From assembly GCA_963765995.1 (NCBI GenBank), contig CAVXYT010000023.1:6995-70994 (forward strand): DNA of 64,000 nt, written 5' to 3'. The DNA is from an uncultured Acidobacteriaceae bacterium (lineage in GTDB: Bacteria > Acidobacteriota > Terriglobia > Terriglobales > Acidobacteriaceae). The translations under genes were made by a program, and so were the position numbers. Shown piece by piece: positions 12,791-44,468 of the stretch. The notes beneath the pieces are model-generated. The model did not search any database. It was not told the origin of the DNA and saw only the letters and a program-made list of their open reading frames with translations. The first letter of the stretch is position 1. Every line of letters starts with the position of its first letter.

Positions 12791-13395
12791 CGGAATATCG
12801 TAGAACATTTGGCGCAGGGGTGTGAAAACGCTCCATATTGGGAGTTGATTTGCTTCCGCTCGGACACCTTGTCAACAAAGAGAGGGTGGAGATTTTCGAT
12901 TAAGTTGTTGAATCAACTAGAGAACCGAGTGGTTATTTATGTTGCAGGAAATTTCCTGGAGATTCGTTAAGCTAAGAACAATCAACGAGGAAAAACGAGA
13001 AATGAGAGGACAGGGGAGCGAGGACGAGGCTTTCCTGGTATTTTTCGGACCACTTCCGCGGTACGCGAGCGTGGGGAGAGACTGAAAACACTTTCAGAGG
13101 CCGGATGGACGTTTTGTCTTATTGAAAAGCTGCGGATGGAAGTGTCGGAAGCAGCCAAAGGCAGACGGGCATCTGACAGGATCTGGAAGAGATCAAAACA
13201 TTTTCCGAGTTGACGCGGAGCTGCGAGAGCGTTGCAAGGCGGTTTGGAGTGAAGGAAGAAGCCGCTGAGTCTTCGCGGCGCCAGACGAGACCAATTCGGC
13301 GAATGCAGGGGTGGTTCCTACAAGGAATCACCCCTTTCTCTTTCTACGGAGAAGAGTGCAAGACCGTGTAATGGCGGGACGGGATTGGCGGAAAC

Positions 13396-13749
13396 ATGGT
13401 GTTGGCAAGGACGAGGCAGGCGGCCGGAGGCAGGCCGCATGGAACAGGGATGCAGGCGAAAACAGTCAGCCGCGGAAAAGCAAAGATGGCGGCGGAGGCG
13501 GACAAGGCCCTGGAAGACAACAGCAGCGAGATAACGAAAGGCTTGACCGAGAACGCGAAAAAGGGCAACGCAACGTGCACAAGGCTGCTACTTGCGCTCG
13601 CGGACGGGCTCATCAACTGCGAGAACGAAGTCGTAATGGAGCAGCTTTGCAGTTATGCCGAGAAGCTGGCTTTGGAGCCGGAATGGACTGGCGAAGAAGA
13701 CGATCTGGATGCGGAGACGAGCATCAGAGAACGCGAAGCGAAGGGTTGA
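13396..13749 (+). CDS. Small helical hypothetical protein at the head of the phage-like cluster (small terminase or regulator candidate)
   Basis: 117-aa charged helical ORF, co-oriented with and just upstream of the cluster; function is inferred from position only. Confidence 0.55.
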   Translation: MVLARTRQAAGGRPHGTGMQAKTVSRGKAKMAAEADKALEDNSSEITKGLTENAKKGNATCTRLLLALADGLINCENEVVMEQLCSYAEKLALEPEWTGEEDDLDAETSIREREAKG

Positions 13750-19793: not shown

Positions 19794-21401
19794 ATGGCGG
19801 CACACAGCGCGGGGCTTGTGCGGGAGCGCGTGGACAGGTTTCTCAAACTTGAGAAAGATATGGCGGAGAAAACAGAAGGAAGCACGGCAGTTGCGGGGGA
19901 GCCGCGCTTGTGCCCGGAGAAGCTCAACCGAGAGGAGCTGGAGCGATTTGGGCGGATTCTGGATTCCCGGCCGTCGAGCATGCGGGGGCGGACGGTGGGC
20001 ATGGCGCTGGCCGAGCAGCTTTTGCAGGTAAGGACGCGGGATGGGAGCACGGCGCCGTTGAAGGCGAACGCGGTGCAGCGAGCCTTTGAGCGGCGGCGGG
20101 GCGAGCGGAATATCGTGCTGAAGGCGCGGCAGATGGGGTTGACGACCTGGGCGGCAGCGCGGTTTTTTCTGAAGACGATTACCCGGCCGGGGACACTGAC
20201 GCTGGAGGTTGCGCACACGCAGGAGGCGGCCGAGGAGATCTTCCAGATCGTTCACCGGTTTGTGGACTGGCTACCGGAGGAACTGCGCGAAGGTCCGCTG
20301 CGGACCTCGCGAGCCAATGTGCGGCAGATTGTGTTTCCGGAGATGGATTCGCAGTACAGAGTGGTATCGGCGGGCGAGCGGAACGCGGGGCGGGGATTGA
20401 CGGTGCAGAATCTGCACTGCTCGGAGCAGGCGCGCTGGCCGGGCGATCCGGCGGAGACGCTGGCGGGATTGCGAGCGGCGATGGCGCCGGGAGCGGAGCT
20501 GATTCTGGAGTCGACGCCGGAAGGAGTGGGCGGATGCTTCCACGAGGAGTGGCAGAAGGCCGGCGAGACGGGGATGGTGCGGCACTTCTTTCCCTGGTGG
20601 ATGGAGCAGCGGTACCGGGCCAGGGCGGCGGATAAGGCGAGCCTGACGAACGAAGAGCGGGACCTGATGGCGCACCGCAAACTGGACCTGGAGCAGATTG
20701 GTTATCGACGGCAGATACGGGCGGATTTTCGCGGGCTGGCGCGGCAGGAGTATGCGGAAGATTGCGAAAGCTGCTTTCTGGCCAGCGGGGATTCGGTCTT
20801 TGAGCTGGCGGCGATTGAAGCGCGGCTGGCAACATCGACCGAACCGATTGAACGGCGGCAAAATGGGGAGTTGGAGATTTGGCTGCCGCCGCTCAAGGGC
20901 AAACAGTACCTGGTGGCGGTTGATCCGGCCGGCGGCGGGAGCGAGGGCGACTACTCGGCGGCGCAGGTGCTGGAGCTGGAGACGGGGCTGCAGTGCGCGG
21001 AGTTTGCCGGACACATGGGGGGTCTGGAGCTGGCGCGGCTGGTGACGGCGCTGGCCGATGAGTACAACCAGGCGTGGCTGGTGGTGGAGAGGAATAACCA
21101 CGGGAGCGGCGTTCTGGCGCTGATCGAGACGGCGTGCGGTTACGGGAAGATCTACCGGCAGGGTGGGCAGGCGGGCTGGCTGACGACGTCGGTGAGCCGG
21201 CCGGCGGCGCTGGGGCGGCTGAATGCTGGGCTGGTGGAGGAGCCGGAGCGTTTTCAGAGCCGGAAGTTGCTGGCCGAGTGCCGGAGTTTTGTGCGCCGGC
21301 CGGACGGCGGGAGCGGGGCGCGGCCGGGGACGCATGACGACCGGGTGATGGCGATGGCAATCGGGCTGGGGGCGCGGGCGGAGTTGGTAGGGAAAAGCTA
21401 G
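19794..21401 (+). CDS. Terminase large subunit
   Basis: Walker A IVLKARQMGLTT, Walker B LHCSE, ESTPEG coupling motif, nuclease YLVAVDPAGG..DYSA and HDDRVMA. Confidence 0.92.
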   Translation: MAAHSAGLVRERVDRFLKLEKDMAEKTEGSTAVAGEPRLCPEKLNREELERFGRILDSRPSSMRGRTVGMALAEQLLQVRTRDGSTAPLKANAVQRAFERRRGERNIVLKARQMGLTTWAAARFFLKTITRPGTLTLEVAHTQEAAEEIFQIVHRFVDWLPEELREGPLRTSRANVRQIVFPEMDSQYRVVSAGERNAGRGLTVQNLHCSEQARWPGDPAETLAGLRAAMAPGAELILESTPEGVGGCFHEEWQKAGETGMVRHFFPWWMEQRYRARAADKASLTNEERDLMAHRKLDLEQIGYRRQIRADFRGLARQEYAEDCESCFLASGDSVFELAAIEARLATSTEPIERRQNGELEIWLPPLKGKQYLVAVDPAGGGSEGDYSAAQVLELETGLQCAEFAGHMGGLELARLVTALADEYNQAWLVVERNNHGSGVLALIETACGYGKIYRQGGQAGWLTTSVSRPAALGRLNAGLVEEPERFQSRKLLAECRSFVRRPDGGSGARPGTHDDRVMAMAIGLGARAELVGKS

Positions 21402-21557
21402 TGGTCAGGGATCAGGGGTCAGGGGTCAGGGGTCAGGGGTCAGGGGTCAGATGAATTGTTCGCGCCATTTTCGGGATGTCAAGCATTTCTTCAGAAGATC
21501 AATCTGCTCGCGCCATCGAAGAGAAACTGATCACTGACCACTGTTCACTGTTCACTG
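21401..21557. repeat. Inverted heptamer-repeat arms between terminase and kinase genes
   Basis: GTGGTCA GGGATCA (GGGGTCA)x5 at 21401-21449; TGATCAC TGACCAC TGTTCAC TGTTCAC at 21528-21555. Confidence 0.85.
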
Positions 21558-21571
21558 TCAACGCTTAGAAT
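21544..21571 (+). promoter_or_regulatory. Candidate sigma70 promoter for the kinase/DUF3037 pair
   Basis: TTCACT-N16-TAGAAT, the -35 lying inside the heptamer arm; GGGGGA Shine-Dalgarno before TTG 21607. Confidence 0.45.
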
Positions 21572-21606: not shown

Positions 21607-22479
21607 TTGGCGGTACTGGCGGTGCAGCATATCCGGCGGATGCGGGGCGGAGCGCAGGGCCAGTTGATGCTGGGCGCGGACGGCCAGGTCTACGTGGTGA
21701 AGTTCCAGAACAACCCGCAGCATATGCGGGTGCTGGCCAACGAGTTTCTGGCCTCACGGCTGGCGGCGGCGGCCGGGCTGGCGGCGCCGGAGACGGAACT
21801 GGTGGAGGTTTCGAGCTGGCTGGTGGAGAATACACCGGAGCTGGAGATCGACCTGGGCAGGAAACGGGTCCGGTGCCAGGCGGGCTTGCAGTTCGGATCA
21901 AGATTTGTGGGCGGCCTGATGCCGGGGCAGGTGGTGGACTACCTGCCCGAGGAGCAGATGACCGAGGTGAGAAACCTGGGCGAGTTTGCCGGCATCCTGG
22001 CGCTGGACAAGTGGACCGGCAATGCGAATGGCAGGCAGGCGGTCTTCGCGCGCAAACAGCGGGAAAGGCGCTACCGGGCGGTTTTTATCGACTACGGGTA
22101 TTGCTTTCACGCCGGGGAATGGAGGTTCGAGGATCTTCCGCTGCGCGGGGTGTATTACCGCAACGATGTCTACCGGGAGATCAGAGGATGGGAATCCTTT
22201 GAGCCCTGGCTGACGCGGCTGGAGACGATGGCGGCGGAGACGGTGTGGGCGGCGGCCAGCGAGGTACCCCCTGAATGGTATGGCGGCGATCTGAGCGAGA
22301 TGGAAGCGCTGGTGGAGAAGCTGCTCCAGCGGCGGAGCCGGATTCGCAAGCTGATTGAAGGATTCGGGAAGTCGGATCGGAAGCCATTTCCGAAATGGGG
22401 CGGGATGGGGAAAGATGTGATGGAAGAGGGTTGGAAAGAGGAACGGTGGGGGACTAACATGACGGGGAGAGTGAATTAG
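21607..22479 (+). CDS. HipA-like (HipA_2-type) Ser/Thr kinase
   Basis: Gly loop MRGGAQ, YVVKF, LANEFLA, FGSRF, catalytic-loop region LDKWTGNANGRQ, DFG-equivalent FIDYGYCF. Confidence 0.85.
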   Translation: MAVLAVQHIRRMRGGAQGQLMLGADGQVYVVKFQNNPQHMRVLANEFLASRLAAAAGLAAPETELVEVSSWLVENTPELEIDLGRKRVRCQAGLQFGSRFVGGLMPGQVVDYLPEEQMTEVRNLGEFAGILALDKWTGNANGRQAVFARKQRERRYRAVFIDYGYCFHAGEWRFEDLPLRGVYYRNDVYREIRGWESFEPWLTRLETMAAETVWAAASEVPPEWYGGDLSEMEALVEKLLQRRSRIRKLIEGFGKSDRKPFPKWGGMGKDVMEEGWKEERWGTNMTGRVN

Positions 22480-22504: not shown

Positions 22505-23380
22505 ATGAGTAGCGGAAACGAACGGCGGGCATGCGAGTTTCAACTGCTCCGGTATGTGCCGGATGCGGTGCGGAACGAGTATGTGCATATCGGGGTGATC
22601 CTCCGCGAGCAGGGCGGCGGGCCAACGGAGATCCGGCTTACCCGCGACTGGCGCCGCGTGCGCTGTCTGGATCCGGAGGCCGACACCGCGCTGCTGGAGG
22701 GGATGGAGAGCGAGCTGCGCAGGCGCTTTGAGGCCGAGCCGGATGGGAATCTGATGCGGTTGCTCAGCGAATCGCTCTCGCTGAGCGTGCAGATGACCGA
22801 ACCCAAGGCGTACCTGGCGGAGAGCCTTCCGGCGGGGATGGAAGAGTTGATGCGGCTTTACGTGGAGCCGCCGCCGAGAGAACGAATCCCGCGGCTGAGC
22901 GGCCGGGCGGCGATTCAGGCGAGGATGCGGACAGAGTTTGAACGGGCCGGGGTGTGGGATCTGCTGAGAAAGAAGATTGCGGCTTCGGAGTACACGCGAC
23001 CGGGGGATCCGCTGCGGATTGACGTGGGGTACCGGCCGAATGGGGTGCGCCACCCCGCGGACAAAGACCCGTCCGCGGGGACCCCGTTCATCCGCATGTT
23101 TCACGCGGTGAGCCTGGAGCCGGGCGTGGAGATGGCCAAGGTGCTGGCATTTTCGGCGGCGGGATTGCGGGCCGGCGTGGAGCGCGTGGAGAAGGCCAGC
23201 CTGGAGCTGACCGCGGTGATCGAGCCCGCATTGAAGCTGGGAGCTACCGGCGAGGAGCCGGAGCGGCTGGAGATGTACCGGTTTGGCGTGGAGACGATGG
23301 AAGAAAACCTCATAAGGGTGCTGACGACGTCGGACCTGGGGCGGGTGGCGGAGACGGCGCGGCGGGAGCTGCGGGTGTGA
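22505..23380 (+). CDS. DUF3037 family protein (partner of HipA-like kinase)
   Basis: N-terminal FQLLRYVPDAVRNEYVHIGVIL signature; directly downstream of the kinase. Confidence 0.85.
   Translation: MSSGNERRACEFQLLRYVPDAVRNEYVHIGVILREQGGGPTEIRLTRDWRRVRCLDPEADTALLEGMESELRRRFEAEPDGNLMRLLSESLSLSVQMTEPKAYLAESLPAGMEELMRLYVEPPPRERIPRLSGRAAIQARMRTEFERAGVWDLLRKKIAASEYTRPGDPLRIDVGYRPNGVRHPADKDPSAGTPFIRMFHAVSLEPGVEMAKVLAFSAAGLRAGVERVEKASLELTAVIEPALKLGATGEEPERLEMYRFGVETMEENLIRVLTTSDLGRVAETARRELRV
23051..23085 (+). repeat. 35-bp palindromic repeat family A, inside DUF3037 gene
   Basis: CACCCCGCGGACAAAGACCCGTCCGCGGGGACCCC, translated HPADKDPSAGTP. Confidence 0.88.
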
Positions 23381-23385
23381 GGACA

Positions 23386-23567
23386 GTTGTCAGTGATCAG
23401 TTGTCAGTTCTTTTCGTATAGATTGCAGCTGACGGAAAATTATCAGCACAGGCTTGCAGATAATTATCGGTGTTTGCGGTAGGATCGATTTTGTTGTGAA
23501 GTTCAAGCGGTTGGAAGTCACGGTCTGTCGGCGGGTAGCTGATCACTGACCACTGACAACTGATCAC
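23386..23567. repeat. Inverted heptamer-repeat arms between DUF3037 and portal genes
   Basis: GTTGTCA GTGATCA GTTGTCA at 23386-23406; TGATCAC TGACCAC TGACAAC TGATCAC at 23540-23567. Confidence 0.85.
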
Positions 23568-23579
23568 TGGCGAAGATGA

Positions 23580-23615
23580 GGCATGGCCCTTTCCGGGGCT
23601 GTGCCTTTTTGTTTT
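23580..23615 (+). terminator. Intrinsic terminator immediately upstream of the portal gene
   Basis: Stem GGCATGGCCC / GGGCTGTGCC (10 bp, 2 G-U), 6-nt loop, followed by TTTTTGTTTT. Confidence 0.7.
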
Positions 23616-23635
23616 GGGGCGGCGGGAAAAGGAAG

Positions 23636-24913
23636 GTGCGCGTGAAGGTAGGAGAGCAGTTGCGGGAGATCTGGCGGCAGGCGACCGGAAGTGGCCGCAG
23701 GACGGAGATAGCGGCGGGCGCGGCAGATGCGGAGGCGGAGCGCAGGACGCTGGCGCTGCCTGCGATCCTGAGCCCGGTCCAGTTTCCGGGACAACACTTG
23801 CCCAAGCCGACACCGATGAATCTGCGTAGATTTGCGGAGACCCCGGTTGTCCGGCGAGCGATCAACGTGATCAAGGATCGCATTGCGGCCATGGACTGGC
23901 AGGTGAGGGTGCGGCGCGGCGTGAGGCCGGGAGATTTGGCCTTTGCGGAACGCAAGCTGCGCGCGCTGCGCCGCACGCTGGAAGAGCCGAATGCGACGGA
24001 CAGTTTTCGGACCTTGATTGAACAGGTGATTGAGGACGCGCTTACGGGCGGGTACGGGGCCATCGAGATGGAGCCGACCGGCGACACAGAGCGGCCGGCG
24101 ATGCTGTGGGCGGTGGATGGGGCGTCGATCCGGATCAATCCACGCTGGGACGGACAGCCGGAGACGCCCCGGTATGCGCAGGCGATGCCGGGGCAACTGG
24201 AGTCGAGCGCGATCGAGTTGCGCGACGACCAGCTTATGTATGTGCGCATGAATCCGCGCAGCTTTACGCCCTTCGGGCTGGGACCGCTGGAAGTGGCCTT
24301 CGAGACGGTGAACCAGTTCTTGAGCGCGCACCGATTTGCAGGCAAGCTGGCGGCGAACGCGGTGGCGCAGTATGCGCTGTGGCTGAACGAGGCGACGCCC
24401 GCGCAGCACGACCGGCTGATTCGCTGGTGGCAGGACGAGATCGAGGGAACAGGGCGGGTGCCGTTGATTTCGACCGAGCAGAAGCCGGAGGTACTGCGCT
24501 TTGCCCAGGGGACGGACGCGGATATGCGGCTGGCCTGGCAGGAGTTTCTGATCCGCATGGTGGCTAACTCCTTCGGGCTGCCGCCGCTGATGCTGGGACT
24601 GGAGGCGGATGTCAACCAATCGACCGCGTCGGAGATGACCGATGAGGCCTTCCGCGGGGCGATCTCGCCGTTGGCGATGCTGCTGGCCGGGCACATTACC
24701 CGTGACCTGTTCGGCAAGTGCATTGGCTGGCGGGAGTTTGAGTTTGTCTTCAACGAACTGAACGCGAGGGACGAGGAGACGGAGCTGGCGGTGCAGGTGC
24801 AACTGCTGCAGGCCGGCGTGTTGACGGTGAACGAGGTGCGGGCGATGCGGGGATTGGGACCGCTGGGGCAGGATGGGGCGGCGCAGTTGACGGGCGGAGC
24901 GGAGAGCGCATGA
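23636..24913 (+). CDS. Phage portal protein (HK97-like)
   Basis: VRRAINVIKDRIA, LIEQVIED.LTGGYG.IE, FGLGPLE, FGLPPLMLG, GVLTVNEVRAMRGLGPL; GTG 23636 with GGAAGG upstream (ORF open from 23576). Confidence 0.9.
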   Translation: MRVKVGEQLREIWRQATGSGRRTEIAAGAADAEAERRTLALPAILSPVQFPGQHLPKPTPMNLRRFAETPVVRRAINVIKDRIAAMDWQVRVRRGVRPGDLAFAERKLRALRRTLEEPNATDSFRTLIEQVIEDALTGGYGAIEMEPTGDTERPAMLWAVDGASIRINPRWDGQPETPRYAQAMPGQLESSAIELRDDQLMYVRMNPRSFTPFGLGPLEVAFETVNQFLSAHRFAGKLAANAVAQYALWLNEATPAQHDRLIRWWQDEIEGTGRVPLISTEQKPEVLRFAQGTDADMRLAWQEFLIRMVANSFGLPPLMLGLEADVNQSTASEMTDEAFRGAISPLAMLLAGHITRDLFGKCIGWREFEFVFNELNARDEETELAVQVQLLQAGVLTVNEVRAMRGLGPLGQDGAAQLTGGAESA

Positions 24914-25410: not shown

Positions 25411-25425
25411 CAAAAACAGTTCACT

Positions 25426-25570
25426 GTTGTCAGTTGTCAGTTCTCAGTCATTGGTTCACAGCAAGCCATCGATAGAGAGCCGTGGAGAAGTCGCGTCTCG
25501 ATAGCAGCTAACTGTAACTGATCGCTGGAAGCTGACAACTGATCACTGATCACTGAGAACTGACAACTGA
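25426..25570. repeat. Inverted heptamer-repeat arms between protease and scaffold genes
   Basis: GTTGTCA GTTGTCA GTTCTCA at 25426-25446; TGACAAC TGATCAC TGATCAC TGAGAAC TGACAAC at 25533-25567. Confidence 0.85.
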
Positions 25571-25982: not shown

Positions 25983-25987
25983 AAGCA

Positions 25988-26008
25988 GTTTTCAGTTGTC
26001 AGTGATCA
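25988..26008. repeat. Heptamer repeat arm before the capsid gene
   Basis: GTTTTCA GTTGTCA GTGATCA. Confidence 0.75.
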
Positions 26009-26045
26009 CTCAAGCAACGGCCCCATGGAGGGGGCGGAGAAGCCT

Positions 26046-27014: not shown

Positions 27015-27023
27015 ACAACGGCA

Positions 27024-27117
27024 GTGATCAGTGAACAGTGGTCAGTGAACAGTAACAACTGACCGCTGTTCACTGCGTGCCGGAGTTTTGTTCTGATCAC
27101 TGACCACTGACAACTGA
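27024..27117. repeat. Inverted heptamer-repeat arms between capsid and neck genes
   Basis: GTGATCA GTGAACA GTGGTCA GTGAACA at 27024-27051; TGATCAC TGACCAC TGACAAC at 27094-27114. Confidence 0.85.
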
Positions 27118-28196: not shown

Positions 28197-28372
28197 GGGA
28201 TCAGGGGTCAGGGATCAGGGGTCTTGATGCGTGATCAATGGCCAAAACCGTGTTTCCGACCCAATCGCGGCTTTTTGTCAACGAACATTGACCCGGAAAG
28301 GTGAGTGGGAAAGCAAGGGAAGTTGATCAAGGAGAGGTTTTCTGATCCCTGATCCCTGACCCCTGATTCCTG
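28197..28372. repeat. Inverted heptamer-repeat arms before the tail genes
   Basis: GGGATCA GGGGTCA GGGATCA at 28197-28217; TGATCCC TGATCCC TGACCCC TGATTCC at 28343-28370. Confidence 0.85.
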
Positions 28373-44054: not shown

Positions 44055-44174
44055 CTGCGCTCGACAGGGCCGTTTTCACCTCCACGGCGGAATTCGCGCG
44101 CCTGTTTGCGGATAATTACTGTCCCTCGTCGCACAATCAATACATGAACAAGGTCCAGAGTCACGTGCACTTCC

Positions 44175-44198
44175 TGACCACTGACCACTGATCACTGA
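44175..44198. repeat. Single heptamer repeat arm in the LOG-trpC spacer
   Basis: TGACCAC TGACCAC TGATCAC TGA. Confidence 0.7.
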
Positions 44199-44468
44199 AA
44201 GCTGGGTACCCCCCCACCCCCCCTACCCCAGGGGGGTATAAATTTCCCCTGAAACCTTGCAGATTATTTCTAACCCGTTTGTAATCAATGCCTGTTGAAA
44301 ACTTTTCGCCCCCAAATTCTCCCGCATGGTGAGATTTGACCCCTGAAAATCACCGGAAAAATCCGATTTTCGCCTAAATAAAAAACCCTAAAGCGTCGCT
44401 CCATGGCCTTTCCGCTAACTTGCCGGAGGCCTTGCGCTTCGGACTTTTCCGTATACTCATCGCAGAGT

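Follow-up and report, generated by a model that had tools for sequence, protein, structure and literature searches.

A conserved terminator hairpin lies ahead of the portal gene in a phage-derived particle cluster of Acidobacteriaceae and may gate its head and tail module

Results

Gene order around the portal gene

The window, that is, the whole stretch of DNA analyzed here, comprises 64,000 nucleotides from an Acidobacteriaceae genome assembly of 3.43 Mb in 30 contigs that is 91% complete. It contains a phage-derived cluster in which the genes for the terminase, a HipA-like kinase, a DUF3037 protein and the portal protein are all co-oriented. The large terminase gene (terL) lies at 19794 to 21401 on the + strand (Pfam Terminase_6C; PHROG terminase large subunit) and is followed by the HipA-like kinase gene at 21607 to 22479 (+; Pfam HipA_2, E = 2.3e-11) and the DUF3037 gene at 22505 to 23380 (+; Pfam DUF3037, E = 3.8e-18, and synteny in relatives), which is the last gene before a hairpin that we call T2. 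Beyond T2, the portal gene at 23636 to 24913 (+; Pfam Phage_portal, E = 1.2e-52; PHROG portal) is the first gene of the right-hand module, whose transcription may be gated. The gene order is shared with other genomes of the family, in which the cluster has a wide, vertical-looking distribution. Between 11000 and 32000, the GC skew of the coding strand is strongly positive (0.1 to 0.33) and far above that of the remaining window.

The DUF3037 and portal genes are separated by a spacer of 255 nt, which consists of a cassette of inverted heptamer repeats, then T2, 8 nt past the 3' arm of the cassette, and finally the portal gene. The 5' arm lies at 23384 to 23408 and the 3' arm at 23539 to 23569, and T2 sits directly 3' of this long, repeat-derived stem. 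Inverted arrays of 7-nt repeats (CAGTGAT, CAGTTGT and GGGGTCA types) flank spacers between genes throughout the cluster; the arrays in the window are found at 21402 to 21543, 23384 to 23569, 25424 to 25569, 25986 to 26009, 27022 to 27116, 28202 to 28365 and 44174 to 44204. Genome-wide, the heptamer repeat has 115 matches.

T2 has the structure of a Rho-independent terminator

T2 is a hairpin of 13 pairs, G-U pairs included, with a loop of 4 nt; on the + strand it reads 23578 GAGGCATGGCCCT-TTCC-GGGGCTGTGCCTT 23607, as delimited by sequence, fold and the covariation in 29 orthologous hairpins described below. The T tract at 23606 to 23615, TTTTTGTTTT, has 9 T in 10 positions and is followed directly by a conserved GGGGCGG. 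A terminator at 23580 to 23615 had been claimed in the sequence-only reading, with a 10-bp stem (GGCATGGCCC/GGGCTGTGCC) and a 6-nt loop. That stem is the T2 helix under stricter counting, and the terminator itself was confirmed by its structure, by its rarity against shuffled sequence and by covariation in relatives.

In a consensus scan, T2 was returned with 13 pairs (7 of them G-C) and a loop of 4 nt, whereas every other terminator-like site between 15 and 35 kb of the window had 8 pairs or fewer. The folding energy was -21.5 kcal/mol for the hairpin alone and -24.8 kcal/mol with its flanks, and T2 stayed an independent hairpin when the whole DUF3037-portal spacer (266 nt) was folded. An RNAfold-based scan between 12 and 36 kb of the window yielded only two strong terminators on the + strand, T2 and a hairpin at 13307 to 13335 that we call T1. 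Hairpins of at least 13 pairs with a T tract were counted 34 times in the genome but 0.7 times in local shuffles. Many of the strong terminators in the genome sit just past gene ends, which indicates that the organism uses canonical terminators. A search of the region from 22800 to 24200 against Rfam gave nothing near threshold; the best match, sbrA, reached 18 bits, where the gathering score is 45.

T2 is conserved and covaries in close relatives

The portal gene is present in 94 of 151 genomes of the family. The near clade was defined as 29 loci with a portal identity of at least 62% and upstream sequence present. At each of the 29, the stretch from the DUF3037 stop to the portal start contains a hairpin plus T tract, with folding energies of -13.7 to -29.6 kcal/mol. 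When the 29 hairpins were aligned, 96.5% of the cells were paired, and double (compensatory) changes were seen in 8 of 10 pairs; not one of 500 shuffles matched this, and slid registers paired to 31 to 56%. About 26 cells of the alignment are G-U pairs, which would be A-C mismatches on the opposite strand. The covariation, together with the many G-U pairs, argues for selection on T2 as a + strand RNA. Most near-clade stems read GAGGCATGGC...GCCATGCCTT, and others have changed on both arms (GGGACGCGGC, GAAGGCTCGCCG, GAGCGGGCTTGGAC). The stem sequence GGCATGGC/GCCATGCC is kept in about 20 of the 29 loci, and the conservation of the T2 sequence exceeds what the structure alone requires. Apart from T2, the spacer cannot be aligned across the near clade.

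The conserved stem would also suit a hairpin that acts mainly after transcription or at the level of the DNA, be it as an mRNA-stabilizing or processing (REP-like) element or as a palindromic operator bound by a dimeric repressor. The same can be said of its place directly behind the repeat-derived stem and of REP-like hairpins in the same genome (C3:168815, C12:282020, C14:32149 and C21:22768) that have nearly the stem of T2 (GGGCATGGCTTTAGCCGTGCC) and no T tract. However, the T tract is conserved at every one of the 29 loci, and the G-U pairs and the changes in the stem are in keeping with a paired RNA and not with a symmetric DNA site; a stabilizing role would, in any case, be compatible with termination. 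We regard such a main function as very improbable, but T2 may derive from a REP-like element. The possibility that T2 is one copy of a repeat dispersed in the genome was rejected: the stem recurs in a few REP-like hairpins, but the combination of hairpin and T tract is unique in the genome. A sigma-54 or ECF-type promoter hidden within the hairpin was excluded by eye, since the length of the loop varies among the loci and a fixed promoter spacing is thereby ruled out.

T2 thus combines a G+C-rich hairpin with a short loop, an adjoining U-rich tract and selected pairing in the + strand transcript, as is characteristic of intrinsic (Rho-independent) terminators, and it is almost certainly a real terminator under selection. 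In the distant clade (portal identity of 52 to 59%), the gene order is unchanged, and of 36 loci only about 13 have a convincing, canonical T2; among the other spacers, some measure 20 to 60 nt and are free of hairpins. Since T2 is missing from about two-thirds of the distant clade, it is dispensable and not an obligatory part of the cluster. Judged from these comparisons, it is a gain or a loss within the family.

Little room for a promoter between T2 and the portal gene

The portal gene starts with GTG at 23636 or with GTG at 23642, the latter being better spaced from the ribosome-binding site GGAAGG, and the N terminus of the portal protein is conserved in relatives. A longer portal reading frame from ATG at 23576, which would enclose the hairpin, was discarded because the frame is closed in several relatives. 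The claim that little space for a promoter is left in front of the portal gene was borne out: 20 to 26 nt lie between the end of the T tract and the portal start in the window, and in the near clade a median of about 45 nt (range, 20 to 304 nt; 29 loci) separates the end of the hairpin from the best portal start, with less than 70 nt at 22 of the 29 loci. The distance between the DUF3037 stop and the hairpin is more variable (19 to 713 nt in the near clade). No conserved -10 box was seen between hairpin and portal start in the near-clade loci and, once the T tract is subtracted, the space left at most of these loci is too short for a promoter plus leader.

On the other side of T2, alignment with relatives revealed a conserved block at 23454 to 23497 (+ strand), about 110 nt before T2, as a candidate internal promoter. 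The block contains TTGCAG, GATAAT (23459 to 23464) and TAGGAT (23480 to 23485; TAGGAT-CGATTTTGT) and is conserved in two close relatives (G062 and G145) although the remaining spacer diverges; the consensus scan did not flag it. As a promoter, the transcripts of which would also meet T2, it is a weak candidate; it may also be a binding site. Elsewhere in the genome, -10 boxes lie directly past the 3' arm of a heptamer cassette (C15:114980 and C24:101044).

T2 belongs to the portal module and not to the kinase/DUF3037 pair

The consensus scan also marked a promoter-like site, TTCACT-16-TAGAAT, at 21544 to 21571 (+ strand) in front of the kinase gene; it directly follows a heptamer repeat arm, as do promoter -10 boxes elsewhere in the genome. 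A promoter motif common to the pre-kinase region and the spacer, TAGRAT-CGATT, was dropped, as it occurs 5 times genome-wide against about 10 occurrences expected from composition. With its promoter-like site, the kinase/DUF3037 pair might be an autonomous, moron-style unit for which T2 is nothing but the gene-end terminator, and the portal gene would then have a promoter of its own that overlaps T2 or was not recognized. In several relatives the hairpin indeed follows the DUF3037 stop by only 19 to 30 nt, which fits such a unit. The gap of 20 to 70 nt between hairpin and portal gene at 22 of 29 loci, in which a conserved -10 box is missing, does not fit.

Two further observations speak against a terminator that serves the pair. 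First, a terminator between terL and the kinase gene is absent from nearly all of 58 loci, and the terL-kinase gap in the near clade ranges from 22 to 365 nt with T2 kept throughout, even at gaps of 22 to 35 nt; the gaps of distant-clade loci that have T2 and of those that lack it cover overlapping size ranges. The idea that T2 is present only where the pair has room for a promoter is therefore unsupported, the length of the gap having no predictive value for T2. Second, in a genome of the same genus (G062), the cluster lies in three parts on separate contigs (C16, C88 and C25; loci L039, L040 and L042) with differing host contexts: the fiber and terminase genes are on one, the kinase and DUF3037 genes near a tRNA gene on another, and the portal module on the third, behind a CpsB/CapC gene. 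There, the DUF3037 gene is followed by unrelated sequence and no T2, whereas the portal module, with the divergent CpsB/CapC host gene upstream, has kept T2 20 nt before its start, and both wobble pairs of the hairpin have turned into Watson-Crick pairs by compensatory changes. T2 therefore travels with the portal module and not with the kinase pair. A perfect TATAAT is present in G062 about 65 nt upstream of T2, at the place that aligns with GATAAT (23459 to 23464) in the window. A promoter and a terminator that move with the insert, the mark of a moron, were not found, neither in the split genome nor at the loci with terL-kinase gaps of 22 to 35 nt, and the moron-style explanation is very improbable.

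A promoter-terminator cassette at the head of the cluster in relatives

T1, the second strong + strand terminator of the RNAfold-based scan, spans 13307 to 13347 with its hairpin (13307 to 13335) and the tract TTCTCTTTCT. It lies about 50 nt before the first reading frame of the cluster and has no + strand gene upstream. A corresponding terminator on the same strand is found upstream of the fiber gene in 25 of 30 relatives. In most Acidobacteriaceae relatives, the head of the cluster is occupied by the gene for a small protein of about 150 to 175 amino acids with a C terminus like sigma region 4 (loci L093 to L117 and L179 to L210), and 30 to 200 nt past this sigma4-like gene a cassette is found (e.g., L098:786-890, L106:762-870, L197 and L203) in which a TTGGCR box is followed, after about 20 nt, by the extended -10 box TGnTATTCT and then by a conserved AAGAG and T1. 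The T1 hairpin begins 20 to 28 nt past the -10 box, and the next reading frame begins 3 to 75 nt past T1. T1 follows the sigma4-like gene at 17 of 19 loci and, in the distant clade, at 15 of 20; the TGnTATTCT box is present at 12 of these 20. Fiber genes that have been relocated from the cluster bear their own copy of the cassette. In the genome studied here, TGnTATTCT is the -10 box of tRNA promoters as well, which indicates that the promoter of the cassette is of the housekeeping type.

In the window itself, no TGnTATTCT box was found before T1; a TTGACG is present upstream of it at 13210 to 13215, with a poor -10 partner. When the 75 nt ahead of every terminator in the genome were scanned for TGnTAnnCT, only 4 unrelated sites and no cassette turned up.

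The first reading frame of the cluster, orf117 (13396 to 13749, +; 117 amino acids), was connected by a shared motif and by BLASTP links with fast-evolving small proteins that are encoded between T1 and the fiber gene in relatives. The shared motif is AKxGxxxxxKLLxxL, and a weak DUF5681 match was obtained; orf117 has no Pfam or PHROG match of its own. By its sequence, orf117 is possibly a small terminase. It was rejected as a regulator, for it has no family match and a direct search finds no homologues beyond the nearest genera.

A sigma-region-4-like protein is encoded in nearly all portal-bearing genomes

The sequence-only reading had seen no antiterminator in the window and had pointed to Q/GafZ-like sigma-region-4 proteins. 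No match above cut-off was obtained for the Q families PF06530 and PF03589 in the 91%-complete genome; PF06323 had no match either, but the positive control likewise gave none and this search is uninformative. Two NusG proteins were considered. One is the housekeeping copy (secE-nusG-rplK), and the other, a paralogue with an NGN domain only (C9:276549-276830), adjoins a SIS-domain sugar gene, is unlinked to the cluster and looks like the regulator of a polysaccharide operon; both were dismissed as antiterminators.

The search for sigma-region-4 proteins was positive: the sigma4-like gene is present in 92 of the 94 portal-bearing genomes and is single-copy in 126 of 151 genomes. In 65 genomes it is located on the contig and strand of the portal gene, 4.3 to 19.7 kb upstream (median, 9.6 kb), and in 26, mostly fragmented assemblies, on another contig. 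Pfam Sigma70_r4_2 scored 24.2 bits against the protein, slightly below the cut-off, and a profile search gave weak, consistent matches to sigma region 4 (CnrH and SigE). Many public homologues, among about 2,900 cluster representatives that are mostly named hypothetical, carry precomputed PF08281 or PF04545 domains. In the AlphaFold model (pLDDT 76), the last 70 residues match sigma region 4 with a TM score of 0.85 to 0.91 to 3hug, and the N-terminal helix is novel, with no clear structural match.

The genome studied here also has a sigma4-like gene, at about 9140 to 9720 of contig C1 and thus outside the window. A candidate of the predicted kind is thus encoded in this genome. Two +1 frameshifts interrupt the gene within the helix-turn-helix (HTH) region (C1:9560-9620), and the adjacent gene for a TPR-repeat protein is frameshifted, too (C1:10120-10140). 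Because the neighbor is affected as well, the frameshifts in the sigma4-like gene may be assembly errors; local assembly indels or real decay may have produced them. Whether this protein is the factor that lets RNA polymerase read through T2 is doubtful at present; it could also be a plain activator or act on something else.

Discussion

The structure, the conservation and the position of T2 were observed, and so was the cassette in front of the cluster in relatives. From these we infer how the cluster may be transcribed. T2 would be a working Rho-independent terminator in the + strand transcript, kept by selection between the two arms of the cluster, the left arm with the fiber, terminase, HipA-like kinase and DUF3037 genes and the right arm from the portal gene to the genes for tail and holin-like proteins. 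Ordinary RNA polymerase that has started upstream, be it at the putative kinase promoter at 21544 to 21571 or elsewhere, would halt at 23606 to 23615. Since no promoter fits into 20 to 26 nt, the right arm would be transcribed only by polymerases that pass T2, and we consider it fairly probable that the portal module depends on this read-through. The likeliest way past T2 would be processive antitermination that is established at the head of the cluster, where most relatives have the sigma4-like gene, the TGnTATTCT promoter, T1 20 to 28 nt further on and then the co-oriented late genes. We give this explanation as a whole, a gate that is opened by antitermination, a probability of roughly 0.55. 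That T2 terminates transcription, that a factor is needed to pass it and which factor this would be are inferences of the model.

Antitermination had been claimed before, and what now speaks for it is architecture: the sigma4-like gene and the promoter-terminator cassette of the relatives. No Q-family protein was found, and the head of the cluster in the genome studied here is without the TGnTATTCT cassette, with a sigma4-like gene that is frameshifted. These last two points, the gene being possibly broken, would suit a role of T2 as a passive, partly leaky terminator without a dedicated factor, which a fixed fraction of polymerases passes. T2 would then end most transcripts of the left arm and shield the right arm from the kinase promoter, so that portal and protease expression would be low and the head and tail genes would be boosted by promoters further downstream. 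A low level would be in line with the low copy number in which the products of the portal gene and the next small gene are required, and long spacers capable of holding promoters are indeed found before the scaffold, adaptor and tail genes. The many distant relatives with unchanged gene order and no T2 fit this reading as well. On the other hand, a long stem with 9 T in 10 positions is predicted to terminate efficiently, a family-wide promoter-terminator cassette beside a regulator gene is hard to explain without an override, and the sequence of T2 is conserved beyond structural need. As an account of the whole locus, the passive terminator is a minority reading that we still take seriously. 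Asked in isolation, the question whether polymerases get past T2 by factor-dependent antitermination or by a fixed leak stands at about even odds; the family-wide cassette favors antitermination. Against the gate as a whole, the high-copy head genes behind T2 could be served by later promoters, such as one in the spacer ahead of scaffold and capsid, which would bypass the terminator.

If antitermination is the way past T2, the sigma4-like proteins are the candidates for the factor. They would constitute a family of processive antiterminators that is new and not related to Q; these proteins would load at the housekeeping-type promoter with the TTGGCR box, carry RNA polymerase over T1 and then T2 and act as the main switch of a vertically inherited cluster, resembling that of a gene transfer agent (GTA), in a phylum that is dominant in soil. 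We put this forward as a tentative proposal. T2 itself is an element of an ordinary kind, and the cluster occurs in about two-thirds of the sampled Acidobacteriaceae genomes. The strict conservation of T2 before the portal gene in the near clade would mean that a phage-derived particle cluster is gated at the level of transcription elongation. The outcome is a regulatory model, with one candidate regulator, two terminators and one promoter, for a possible GTA-like system of abundant soil bacteria, and cultured relatives such as Acidipila rosea open it to testing.

The layout can be compared with three known systems. In phage lambda, late control is exerted by the Q gene, the PR' promoter, the tR' terminator and the late operon, with Q21 and Q82 as further examples. 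The cluster head of the relatives resembles this arrangement in having an adjoining regulator gene upstream, a housekeeping-type promoter, a terminator some tens of bases on and, behind it, a long operon of co-oriented virion genes whose transcription would have to proceed through additional terminators such as T2. Unlike in lambda, no Q-family protein was found in the genome, the candidate factor folds like sigma region 4, and T2 is internal and has no promoter of its own; in the genome studied here, the regulator gene is also unlinked and the promoter box unrecognizable. Terminators also flank the morons of HK97 and lambda in lambdoid late operons. As in a moron, the kinase and DUF3037 genes are embedded in a virion operon, with a promoter-like site and a downstream terminator that the polymerase of the operon must ignore. 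In contrast to morons, the pair has long been a fixed component of the cluster, and T2 tracks the portal gene, as seen in G062, and is kept even at loci too tight for a promoter of the pair.

The third system is the GTA of Caulobacter crescentus, which is regulated by GafY and GafZ. GafZ is reported to have a sigma-factor-like HTH, to bind within the cluster promoter and to let RNA polymerase get past a terminator that follows the first GTA gene (PMC11150451). This terminator, terGTA, is made up of three 150-bp GC-rich repeats (PMC11150451), whereas T2 is a canonical hairpin plus U tract; moreover, the phyla differ, and the acidobacterial cluster is known from its genes alone. The likeness lies in a domesticated, phage-like cluster with an internal terminator, which in Caulobacter comes early in the GTA cluster. 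As for the factor, the sigma-factor-like HTH reported for GafZ may be compared with the sigma region 4 fold of the sigma4-like candidate and with the conserved TTGGCR box about 20 nt before the -10 box. Finally, the GTA regulator of Caulobacter is encoded apart from the cluster, as is the sigma4-like gene in the genome studied here.
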